Positions 12,085 through 23,571 are shown, numbered from the stretch's first letter. The stretch is DNA of 32,366 nt from Candidatus Woesearchaeota archaeon (GCA_016926395.1 JAFGOT010000004.1:1-32366); one strand, 5' to 3'. Numbers and translations are program-made. Notes: a model not told the origin generated them from the letters alone.

Positions 12085-12201
12085 GCCTCCGTGGCTTAGT
12101 GGCTATAGCGCCTGACTTGTATACAAAACGAATGTTTTGAACCTTTCAAACTTCGTTATCAAGGAATCAGGAGGTCGCGAGTTCAACTCTCGCCGGGGGC
12201 T
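12085..12201 (+). tRNA. tRNA-Thr(UGU) with 44-nt intron at 37/38 (12122-12165)
   Basis: Acceptor GCCTCCG/CGGGGGC; anticodon arm CCTGA-CTTGTA^A-TCAGG; T arm GCGAG-TTCAACT-CTCGC; U73. Bulge-helix-bulge formed by CTTG/CAAG with TAT and GAA bulges. Confidence 0.95.
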
Positions 12202-21491: not shown

Positions 21492-22202
21492 GTGAAAATC
21501 ATGGATTACAGTACAACAGAAATACTAATTGGAAAAGAAAAACAAGAAATGCTAAAAACAAAAACAGTCTCAATCATAGGTTTAAGTGGAATAGGTGTTA
21601 CAGCCGCCCAAATATTAGTACGAAATGGTGTAAACTTAAGAATAGTTGACAAAGAAAGAGTTTACGAAAAAGAAGCACCAAGATACACAACATACATTGA
21701 AGATGATATAAACAAGTTTAAAGCAAAACAAGCAAAAAAAAGACTTGAAGAAATAAATAGCGAAGTTAAAGTTAAATCATTTCATGAAGAATTAACAAAA
21801 GATAATGTTTTTTTACTTGATGCAGATGTAATAATCGATGCAAGTAACAATTTTAAAACATCAAAAATAGTAAATAATTTTGCACTTTCAAAAGACATCC
21901 CGCTAATCTTTGCAAACCATGTTGGAAGAAAAGGTCACGTTCTAGTTGTAGATAGAAAACAAAACAAAAAAGGAGCGTGCGTTGAATGTTTAGAAGAAGA
22001 ATTAAACATTGGATCCATCAAAGAAGATGGCGCTTATGGTCCAACAGCAATGATGGTTGCAGCACTAGCAGCAAATGCAGCAATAAAAAATCTAATTGGA
22101 ATAGAAAATGTTGAACAATTATTAGTTATTGACGCCTTAAAAACAGAAGTTAGACATAAAAACGTTGAGAAAAAACGAACGTGTAAAGCAGGAAAGAACT
22201 AA
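21492..22202 (+). CDS. divergent ThiF/MoeB/E1-like protein
   Basis: IIGLSGIG nucleotide-binding loop, KAKQAKKRLEEINS, IIDASNN, CVEC, GAYGP; start GTG 21492 or ATG 21501. Confidence 0.85.
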   Translation: MKIMDYSTTEILIGKEKQEMLKTKTVSIIGLSGIGVTAAQILVRNGVNLRIVDKERVYEKEAPRYTTYIEDDINKFKAKQAKKRLEEINSEVKVKSFHEELTKDNVFLLDADVIIDASNNFKTSKIVNNFALSKDIPLIFANHVGRKGHVLVVDRKQNKKGACVECLEEELNIGSIKEDGAYGPTAMMVAALAANAAIKNLIGIENVEQLLVIDALKTEVRHKNVEKKRTCKAGKN

Positions 22203-22213
22203 GGATAAATACA

Positions 22214-23251
22214 GTGACAAGTAGAGAAGAAATTATTAAAAAAATTAGAGACCAACTTAACGATAGCGCCAGACCTTTATTTCTATTTGATGATGATCCT
22301 GACGGATTAGCAGCATTCTTATTGCTTTACAAAATGGTAAGAGCAGGAAAAGGTTCTGCATTAAAAGGATCTAATCTTAACGAAGAGTACGCAGAAAAGG
22401 TGAATGAATATTCACCTGATTTAGTTGTGATACTTGATAAACCAATAGTGGAACAAGATTTTTTTGACAAAGTAAAATCTAAATGTATTTGGATAGATCA
22501 CCACGAATTACAGACTCCGAAAGGAGTAACGTACTTTAATCCAAGAAAATATGATTCTGAAAAAAATATTCCAACAAGCCAATTATGTTATGAGATAACA
22601 CAGGAAGACGAATGGATTGCAGCAGTTGGGATAGTGGCTGATTGGTGTATACCACCTCAAGATATAATAAAAAAAACAAGAGAAAAATTTGGAAATGTGA
22701 TTTCTGAAAAAATAGAAAACGCACCAGATGCATTATACAACAGCGACATAGGAAAAATTGCAAGAGTGTTCTCGTTTAATCTAAAAGGTAAAGCAAAAGA
22801 CGTATATGCAAGTATGAAAATACTAAGTAGAATAAAAAGTCCACAAGAACTCCTTAATGAAGAACATGCACAAGCAAAGCTAGTGATGAAACAATACAAA
22901 AATCATCAAAAAGAATATGAAAAAGTTTTAAGTCAAATCGAAGTTAATAAAGAAGACAGCATTTTATTATTCAAATATACAGATAGTTCAAACTCATACA
23001 CAGTCGATTTATCAAATGAATTATTATATCGATACCCTGAAAAATATATAATAATAGCAAGATACCACAATAACTCTTATCGATGTTCTCTAAGAAGCAA
23101 CAAATATCCAGTAGAACCAATCCTTCAAGATGTTTTGAAAACAACAGGAGGAACAGGAGGAGGACATTTGCACGCATGTGGAGCAATAATCCCTGAAGAA
23201 CAGTTTGATAATTTTGTGGAATTAATTAGAGATAAGACAAAAGCTTTTTAA
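22214..23251 (+). CDS. DHH/DHHA1 phosphoesterase (RecJ/NrnA-like)
   Basis: FDDDPDGL, ILDKP, WIDHH, GIVAD, SLRS, GGGHLHACG. Confidence 0.92.
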   Translation: MTSREEIIKKIRDQLNDSARPLFLFDDDPDGLAAFLLLYKMVRAGKGSALKGSNLNEEYAEKVNEYSPDLVVILDKPIVEQDFFDKVKSKCIWIDHHELQTPKGVTYFNPRKYDSEKNIPTSQLCYEITQEDEWIAAVGIVADWCIPPQDIIKKTREKFGNVISEKIENAPDALYNSDIGKIARVFSFNLKGKAKDVYASMKILSRIKSPQELLNEEHAQAKLVMKQYKNHQKEYEKVLSQIEVNKEDSILLFKYTDSSNSYTVDLSNELLYRYPEKYIIIARYHNNSYRCSLRSNKYPVEPILQDVLKTTGGTGGGHLHACGAIIPEEQFDNFVELIRDKTKAF

Positions 23252-23305: not shown

Positions 23306-23378
23306 GCCTCCTTGGCTTAGTGGCTATAGCACGGCATTGGTAATGCCGAGATCCCGGGTTCAACTCCCGGAGGAGGCT
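23306..23378 (+). tRNA. tRNA-Thr(GGU)
   Basis: GCCTCCT/AGGAGGC acceptor; CGGCA-TTGGTAA-TGCCG anticodon arm; CCGGG-TTCAACT-CCCGG T arm; U73; 73 nt. Confidence 0.97.
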
Positions 23379-23412: not shown

Positions 23413-23433
23413 CTTTTAAAAGAAATAATGTTC
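23413..23433 (+). promoter_or_regulatory. putative tRNA-Thr(AGU) promoter
   Basis: AAAACGC BRE-like element followed by TTTTAAAAGAAATAATGTTC; the TATA begins ~43 nt upstream of the tRNA. Confidence 0.6.
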
Positions 23434-23456: not shown

Positions 23457-23529
23457 GCCTCCGTGGCTTAGTGGCTATAGCGGCTGCCTAGTAAGCAGCA
23501 GGTCCCGAGTTCAAATCTCGGCGGAGGCT
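23457..23529 (+). tRNA. tRNA-Thr(AGU), A34 anticodon
   Basis: Perfect cloverleaf: GCCTCCG/CGGAGGC acceptor; GCTGC-CTAGTAA-GCAGC anticodon arm; CCGAG-TTCAAAT-CTCGG T arm; U73; 73 nt. Confidence 0.93.
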
Positions 23530-23539
23530 TATTTCTTAT
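23522..23539 (+). repeat. 18-bp direct repeat, copy 1 (tRNA 3' end; attL-like)
   Basis: CGGAGGCTTATTTCTTAT, identical to 25092-25109. Confidence 0.85.
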
Positions 23540-23571
23540 TTATATAAAGCTCTCAATCTAAAAAATTAGAA

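Follow-up and report, generated by a model that had tools for sequence, protein, structure and literature searches.

A threonine tRNA gene with an A34 (AGU) anticodon in Woesearchaeales and other DPANN archaea

A 32,366-nucleotide stretch of DNA from a Candidatus Woesearchaeota archaeon (GCA_016926395.1, JAFGOT010000004.1:1-32366; hereafter the window) encodes an intact threonine tRNA whose anticodon, AGU, begins with adenosine at wobble position 34 (A34). Such a tRNA is unusual for the archaeal domain, and the sequence-only reading that had pointed to it was confirmed by ARAGORN, by Rfam and by recurrence of the gene in relatives. We put at about two in three the probability that it specifies a functional, chromosomally inherited fourth threonine isoacceptor of Woesearchaeales, with A34 most likely unmodified and reading ACU. 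The gene is intact and shows compensatory changes in its stems, its distribution is patchy but clade-stable, it lies in a syntenic context, no known deaminase accompanies it in G000, and its presence is associated with low GC content and low use of ACC. The window is contig C9 of a 1.02-Mb, 40-contig assembly with 32% GC that is rated 82.5% complete (genome G000), and the host is a Woesearchaeales-type DPANN archaeon.

Structure, conservation and distribution of the A34 tRNA

ARAGORN and Rfam agree on threonine, on the anticodon (AGT in DNA letters) and on exactly the same interval, 23457-23529 on the plus strand, where the Rfam tRNA model RF00005 is matched in full (model positions 1-71) at 66.1 bits (gathering score, 29; E = 1.9e-12). 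The gene is 73 nt long and intron-less, has U73 and no encoded CCA, and carries the anticodon loop C32-U33-A34-G35-U36-A37-A38. It had been described from the sequence alone as a flawless 73-nt cloverleaf; coordinates, loop, length and U73 were all correct, but the structure is more accurately nearly flawless, the stems being fully paired save for a U13.U22 mismatch in the D stem that is also found in 15 of 23 aligned copies. Those copies form alignment A1, which comprises 23 distinct intron-less A34 threonine tRNAs from Woesearchaeales, other Nanoarchaeia and Micrarchaeota. A tRNA-scoring cloverleaf with an NGU anticodon places the gene among archaeal elongator threonine tRNAs, and its body is that of a threonine tRNA, with G1-C72, C2-G71 and U73 invariant in A1.

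The A34 tRNA-Thr is real, conserved and structurally selected. With A1 laid on the cloverleaf, 96.9% of cells held standard pairs, 13 of 21 pairs had changed on both sides, and the acceptor, anticodon and T stems were 100% paired. None of 500 shuffles reached the observed values, and sliding the register lowered pairing to about 40-55%. Positions 32-38 (CUAGUAA), A34 included, are invariant. The AGT tRNAs also share the elbow type of their own host genome, either G18/U55 or A18/G55, which argues for long residence over recent transfer.

The same A34 gene recurs well beyond the window. BLAST of the window's tandem GGT-AGT tRNA pair against 60 relatives revealed near-identical AGT tRNAs in genomes G014, G011, G016, G039 and G042, and CGT tRNAs in others. 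Three of these belong to the family of the window genome (f1) and were named by 100% identity over a 3-kb stretch each: G014 is Candidatus Woesearchaeota archaeon CA_2019_TPIn_95, G011 is Woesearchaeota archaeon CSBr16_114 and G016 is Nanoarchaeia archaeon STD2_242. Conservation of AGU among related genomes, which the sequence-only reading had proposed as a check, was found on a larger scale with a search pattern consisting of the threonine tRNA 5' half ending in YT-AGT-R, with canonical introns tolerated. Overall, 40 of 400 genomes sampled from the order matched, 39 of them with clear threonine tRNAs, compared with 5 matches for a reversed-pattern control. The 39 genomes (38 without the unpublished G348) span at least 18 families, including 4 of 4 genomes in family f7 and 6 of 7 in f26. 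All six genomes checked in family f1 carry AGT (G000, G011, G004, G014, G015 and G016), and 5 of the 8 genomes examined in genus g1 do not. Approximately 40% of the order's AGT genes have an intron after position 37, and re-splicing with a stem-restoring script recovered a perfect AGT anticodon arm in intron-bearing threonine genes.

Outside the order, a class-level sample of 256 genomes contained AGT in 7 of 9 members of family f137, which belongs to another order, and in the one sampled member of a further family, with several large families having none. A global scan of 185,579 species genomes, using the exact strict pattern and covering intron-less genes only, returned 35 loci: about 20 in Woesearchaeota/Nanoarchaeia, 3 in Micrarchaeia/Micrarchaeota, 1 on a Nitrosopumilaceae contig and 11 in bacteria.

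Candidate expression signals accompany the window's gene. A TATA-like box, TTTTAAAAG, judged by eye at about 23414-23422 on the plus strand, is a putative promoter of its own and ends 34 nt before the mature 5' end; a TTTTTAAAT(A/G) box, also recognized by eye, is conserved 22-24 nt upstream of the solitary AGT genes in G014, G016 and locus L119. After the gene comes a T-rich tract that is visible by eye (tatttcttattt), and the T-rich 3' trailer read from the sequence at 23530-23542 (+), tatttcttattta, is a candidate archaeal terminator. T-rich tracts lie 3' of nearly all other AGT genes compared, with G196 as the exception. By inspection, then, the promoter and terminator signals of the AGU gene appear plausible. 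In G011 only 12 nt separate the GGT and AGT tRNAs, which probably share a transcript.

Several further observations concern the tRNAs of these archaea and the records in which they occur. In many Woesearchaeales tRNAs, the near-universal G18/U55 is replaced by the combination of A18 (D loop, AGTAGC) and G55 (T loop); the variant T loop reads GTGCAA, or GCGCACA in G042 and in the GGT tRNA of G099. A18 and G55 co-occur without exception in 74 threonine tRNAs (25 variant, 49 standard), and both elbow types are found together in single genomes (for example, G183 and G077). Variant elbows occur at L012:1476-1548 (-), L046, L060-L062, L133-L139, L143 and other loci, and the window's three threonine tRNAs are not variant. 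The G55 of the variant elbow rules out pseudouridine-55.

ARAGORN detected 28 tRNAs across the whole G000 assembly, with AGT as the sole anticodon beginning with A (ANN). ARAGORN calls such as Ser(aga), intron-bearing Leu(aag), Asp(atc), Phe(aaa) and Val(aac) in intron-bearing genes were rejected as intron-placement artefacts and were not counted. The Rfam route gave 25 tRNAs for G014, which is rated 100% complete, and several amino acids are unrepresented in these sets; many tRNAs of the two genomes may be unassembled or of unusual architecture. Of the about 20 Woesearchaeota/Nanoarchaeia records in the global scan, four (L103, L105, L118 and L119) are titled 'uncultured Methanosarcinales archaeon'. 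They have 28-32% GC, and their tRNA loci correspond to those of the Woesearchaeales genomes G282, G077 and G154; the NCBI names look wrong. The Nitrosopumilaceae contig (L100:5247-5323 (-)) carries a cluster of Thr(AGT), two Thr(TGT) and Gln(TTG), and very similar AGT/CGT threonine tRNAs lie on tiny contigs of 31-36% GC binned as Desulfobacterales and Bacteroidetes (L112, L124); these three may derive from a marine thaumarchaeal virus or mobile element with an A34 threonine tRNA.

An additional isoacceptor at a syntenic locus

The sequence-only reading held that AGU occupies the slot of the CGU isoacceptor and named loss of CGU in relatives as a check, and neither was borne out by comparison. 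A CGT pattern applied to the same 400 genomes gave 298 positives, and 35 of the 39 AGT genomes were positive as well (a tally that includes 12 unpublished genomes). The AGT genomes without CGT are G000 and three metagenome-assembled genomes (MAGs), 71-89% complete. All five closest relatives tested (G011, G004, G014, G015 and G016) have CGT alongside AGT, the CGT gene of G004 being locus L003, and the CGU genes of highest sequence similarity sit at unrelated loci. No Thr(CGT) gene was found in the G000 assembly by ARAGORN, pattern search or blastn, which says little because this MAG is 82.5% complete with only 28 tRNAs detected. Replacement of CGU by AGU was therefore rejected on the cross-tabulation, the closest relatives and the lack of synteny with CGU loci. 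Because most AGT genomes, the closest relatives among them, also have CGT, AGU is an additional isoacceptor.

The locus is instead shared with GGU. Both further isoacceptors reported from the sequence alone were located by ARAGORN and Rfam: tRNA-Thr(GGU) at 23306-23378 (+; Rfam 66.1 bits), the tandem upstream neighbour on the same strand, separated from the AGU gene by 78 nt, and tRNA-Thr(UGU) at 12085-12201 (+), whose intron follows position 37 (46-nt insertion in the Rfam match, 54.6 bits; ARAGORN -i, tgt i(37,44)). Upstream of the pair lie a ThiF-family gene at 21492-22202 (+; Pfam ThiF, 143 bits), which is part of the conserved context, and a DHH/DHHA1 phosphoesterase gene at 22214-23251 (+; Pfam DHH and DHHA1), which serves as the syntenic anchor, giving the order ThiF, DHH/DHHA1, GGT, AGT. 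At L119, sequence that aligns with the window's ThiF gene likewise precedes the AGT tRNA. Orthologues of the DHH gene (51-57% identity) are followed by GGT alone in G008, G001, G009 and G002, which belong to the same genus and have no AGT; by GGT-AGT in G011; and by AGT alone in G014 and L119. The GGT-AGT tandem is kept in G011 and G004, GGU adjoins AGU in G000, G011, G004, G039, G162, G183 and G346, and a TGT-to-AGT spacing of ~10-11 kb is kept in G014 and G015. CGU at this locus in all relatives, which the sequence-only reading had named as evidence that would tell against it, is thus not what the comparison revealed: the relatives have AGU, GGU plus AGU or GGU alone.

In sister genus g2, AGU is the only tRNA at this locus. 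Thr(GGT) was not found in G014 (100% complete), G015 (95%) or G016 (99%) by either of two search patterns, the looser of which was very relaxed, although tRNA detection is poor in these genomes, with only 25 Rfam hits in G014; the same two patterns found AGT, CGT and TGT in each of the three genomes. Genus g2 may have lost its G34 isoacceptor and, if the absence of GGU holds, AGU would have taken over the GGU position there.

Where the A34 state came from was addressed with a tree of 73 threonine tRNAs (72 columns, position 34 masked; 35 of 69 forks open). GGT formed a separate clade with 98% support, and AGT, CGT and TGT were intermixed. Well-supported branches force at least two AGT origins, and the best tree needs 11, with most forks unresolved. 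A single AGU origin was rejected on this minimum of two, as was an origin of AGU from the GGU clade. The tRNA bodies also vary: in G039 position 34 and one T-loop base are the only differences between the AGT and CGT genes, in G099 the AGT tRNA has a different anticodon arm that is shared with a CGT tRNA of the same genus, and the bodies seen in f137 and Micrarchaeota are different again. The window's AGU tRNA shares 97% identity with the AGT tRNA of G014 and 92-93% with CGT tRNAs from relatives; in its acceptor and D arms it agrees with its GGT neighbour. Because the AGT bodies differ among G039, G099, f137 and Micrarchaeota, and given the tree, A34 has been reached repeatedly from C34 or U34 paralogues. 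A C34 or U34 threonine tRNA would have been duplicated and its position 34 then changed to A, more than once in these archaea.

Deaminases, codon usage and the decoding of ACU

The sequence-only reading posed a choice between decoding by unmodified A34 and a route to inosine at position 34 (I34) of unrecognized type, and that choice stands; no known deaminase was found. At E<=0.1, the G000 assembly (82.5% complete) contained no hit to PF00383 (dCMP_cyt_deam_1), PF14437 (MafB19-deam), PF02137 (ADAR-type A_deamin) or PF00962 (A_deaminase). ADAR-type and amidohydrolase adenosine deaminases were rejected, as none occurs in G000. TadA was tested across the 400 order genomes with NCBIfam NF008113 at E<=1e-25, and only two passed: G023 (153 bits, AGT-bearing) and G058 (169 bits, no AGT found). 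Seven further weak matches to the model were all in genomes without AGT. In 38 of the 39 AGT genomes, no TadA was found at this cut-off, and TadA-dependent I34 was rejected, with two of 400 genomes over the threshold and one of these AGU-bearing. The expected lack of a detectable TadA/ADAT-type deaminase thus held, with none in G000 and TadA in 1 of 39 AGT genomes. Genes of the cytidine deaminase (CDA) fold are present in 51 of 61 relatives, AGT-bearing or not, and those that were read are mostly of deoxycytidine monophosphate (dCMP)-deaminase, RibD-like or Cdd type; none is present in the AGT-bearing genome G016, which is 99% complete.

The proteins of G023 and G058 thus pass the TadA equivalog cut-off, although archaea are described as lacking TadA. 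The gene of G023 (L063:1354-1809 (-)) has host-like GC (30%) and lies beside a thymidine kinase gene, and that of G058 (L064:1324-1824 (-)) lies near genes for NusG and an RRM protein; both encode an HAE...PCxMCAGA motif. Bacterial transfer or mis-binning is possible for either.

Codon usage favours ACU. Across 581 long open reading frames (ORFs) of G000, ACU accounts for 46% of threonine codons, ACA for 40.5%, ACC for 7% and ACG for 6%, and the suggestion that ACU-rich usage fits an A34 tRNA is consistent with ACU being the commonest. In locus samples of 3-8 kb per genome, AGT-bearing genomes (n = 27) had a median GC of 31% and ACC of 7.7%, versus 39% and 17.5% for genomes without AGT (n = 26), a trend only, as the genomes are related and p-values overstate it. 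Within the genus, AGT-lacking species are GC-richer. The heavy ACU usage noticed in minus-strand genes is likewise seen, at 65% of their threonine codons; in long ORFs on the plus strand of the window, ACA makes up 77%. This strand asymmetry among synonymous codons points to a marked A/T skew between the strands of the contig.

From these gene-level data we infer that the AGU tRNA is expressed and charged by threonyl-tRNA synthetase, that its A34 is unmodified and that it would read ACU. Left as adenosine, A34 would form a Watson-Crick pair with ACU, the commonest threonine codon of this AT-rich genome; without the AGU tRNA, ACU would be readable only through G:U wobble by tRNA-Thr(GGU). ACC would perhaps be read weakly by the AGU tRNA, as in Mycoplasma, which would explain how the sister genus could seemingly lose GGU and keep AGU at the same locus. 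A Methanocaldococcus jannaschii tRNA body with an AGU anticodon was unmodified by Escherichia coli TadA and preferred ACU over ACC by >=10:1 (PMC11066159), and the tRNA-Thr(AGU) of Mycoplasma capricolum, with unmodified A34, decoded every ACN codon in vitro, though ACA only poorly (PMC3711424). Users of I34 are normally without a G34 isoacceptor (PMC8879553), so the adjacent GGU gene in G000 favours unmodified A34.

Several points weigh against this interpretation. With G000 82.5% complete, a deaminase could sit in the missing part, and the possible absence of GGU in g2, if true, resembles the situation of I34 users. Archaea also deaminate a tRNA adenosine on the way to 1-methylinosine at position 57 (m1I57), an activity that is not known to have been assigned to an enzyme, so that an unrecognized deaminase is conceivable. 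The association with GC and ACC is, as stated, a trend. Finally, all four-fold codon families of G000 prefer codons ending in U (NNU; Val GUU 63%, Leu CUU 61%), and A34 occurs only in threonine; because the other families are equally U-biased without A34, codon bias alone does not explain the threonine case.

Among the alternatives, conversion of A34 to inosine, either by an enzyme unrecognizable as TadA/ADAT or by one encoded in the unassembled part of the genome, would allow the tRNA to read ACU, ACC and ACA like eukaryotic tRNA-Thr(IGU). Eukaryotic A34 tRNAs, and those of bacteria whose A34 sets have expanded, are usually I34 (PMC11066159, PMC8007984), and the three g2 genomes (G014, G015 and G016), with AGU at the GGU locus and GGU not found, follow the pattern of I34 users. 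G014 also encodes a COG0590-like deaminase (64 bits to TadA), true TadA in G023 and G058 indicates that the gene is available by transfer, and there is the 82.5% completeness of G000. We nevertheless consider this unlikely, given that TadA is missing at E<=1e-25 from 38 of the 39 AGU genomes, that neither G000 nor G016 (99% complete) has a CDA-fold gene, that such genes are equally common without AGU (51 of 61) and mostly of dCMP-deaminase type, that GGU is kept beside AGU in G000 and the six other genomes listed above, and that AGU on an archaeal tRNA body is left unmodified by E. coli TadA (PMC11066159). It is more doubtful still that a DPANN deaminase unrelated to TadA/ADAT, for which the m1I57 enzyme is one candidate, makes I34 in tRNA-Thr(AGU) and in other A34 tRNAs of relatives, such as Leu(AAG); if true, I34 wobble decoding would have been invented a third time, independently, and for the first time in Archaea.

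The gene could also be a redundant copy whose anticodon mutation is neutral or slightly harmful, with little or no expression and heading for loss, in keeping with its patchiness (5 of 8 g1 genomes without AGT, four of which were checked and have GGU alone at the syntenic site), with the G039 AGT copy that departs from its CGU copy only at position 34 and one base, and with the readability of ACU by GGU. This is hard to reconcile with an invariant A34 and anticodon loop and with compensatory change in 13 of 21 stem pairs among copies from different families, orders and phyla, with fixation in families (f7 4/4, f26 6/7, f137 7/9), with the independent rise of the same change more than once, with a TATA-like box conserved upstream and with the keeping of AGU in g2, where GGU was not found; we regard it as improbable. 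Delivery of the tRNA by a virus or mobile element, suggested by a 5' half that is nearly identical across distant families, is highly improbable and was rejected, as the flanks are a housekeeping locus (ThiF, DHH phosphoesterase, tRNA-GGU) that is syntenic across the family; no integrase or viral genes are annotated in the immediate flanks, and the tRNA body follows the host elbow type. That a CGU or GGU tRNA was misassembled, or given a wrong consensus base, at position 34 might be suspected from the single-base difference from CGU tRNAs of relatives and from the genome being a MAG. The probability of such an error is negligible, and it was rejected because the same A is present in >50 independently assembled MAGs from different studies.

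Relation to known decoding systems

Reviews describe archaea as having neither ANN tRNA genes nor an A34 deaminase (PMC8007984, PMC11066159, PMC8879553); A34 tRNA genes are said to be absent from archaea (PMC11066159), and unmodified A34 to be rarely or never allowed in them (PMC8879553). Our literature search found no published description of an archaeal tRNA-Thr(AGU), and no paper linking DPANN with A34 or Woesearchaeota with wobble. The present analysis adds the archaeal A34 threonine case, together with how it is distributed, how it relates to CGU and GGU, and a deaminase test across the order. The rule that ANN tRNAs are missing from archaea enters models of the evolution of the genetic code and of wobble decoding, and the A34 tRNA-Thr is not a one-off, occurring in about one in ten sampled Woesearchaeales species and in other DPANN archaea, almost never together with TadA. 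The locus series of GGU alone, GGU plus AGU and AGU alone could show how G34 gives way to A34, a change that came before I34 spread in eukaryotes. Annotators should keep archaeal A34 tRNAs and not discard them as artefacts.

The one archaeal A34 case that we found in print is the tRNA-Arg(ACG) of Methanobrevibacter ruminantium, for which lateral acquisition is suspected (PMC8450103). Like the gene described here, it is an A34 tRNA gene in an archaeal genome, but it is a single-genome oddity that is absent from close relatives and has a conflicting isotype score, whereas tRNA-Thr(AGU) is a normal archaeal threonine tRNA found across families. In bacteria, tRNA-Thr(AGU) and tRNA-Leu(AAG) replace GNN tRNAs in Leuconostocaceae (PMC8007984), and Lactobacillales have a tRNA-Leu(IAG) (PMC13249217). 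The same A34 pair, Thr(AGU) and Leu(AAG), is present in G014; the bacteria have TadA, however, and these archaea almost never do. On contig C20 of G014 (L176:20-105 (+), L173:21-107 (+)), an intron-less tRNA-Leu(AAG) lies ~0.9 kb from a near-identical tRNA-Leu(UAG). It is a second A34 tRNA in the lineage, and none was found in the G000 assembly.

Eukaryotic tRNA-Thr(IGU), a substrate of ADAT2/ADAT3, resembles the archaeal gene in being encoded with AGT and in serving a four-codon box, here ACN, and in the sister genus g2 the G34 isoacceptor was likewise not found. It differs in that no ADAT/TadA homologue, including one of ADAT2 type, was detected here and in that G000 keeps its G34 isoacceptor 78 nt upstream of the AGU gene.

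The closest working analogue is the tRNA-Thr(AGU) of Mollicutes (M. capricolum and others), described by Andachi 1987 and Inagaki 1995 as cited in PMC11066159 and PMC3711424. The hosts in those accounts are bacteria whose minimal threonine set consists of AGU and UGU, so that several codons fall to AGU. In the archaeal host, by contrast, AGU is supernumerary, added to the GGU and UGU genes of the window (and to CGU in the five relatives), so that AGU and UGU are not the sole readers of ACN; A34 is unmodified in Mollicutes and probably so here. In both cases, by the same accounts and within the limits of assembly completeness, a small AT-rich genome with no detectable TadA or other A34 deaminase encodes an A34 threonine tRNA beside tRNA-Thr(UGU), and in both the anticodon loop reads CUAGUAA.
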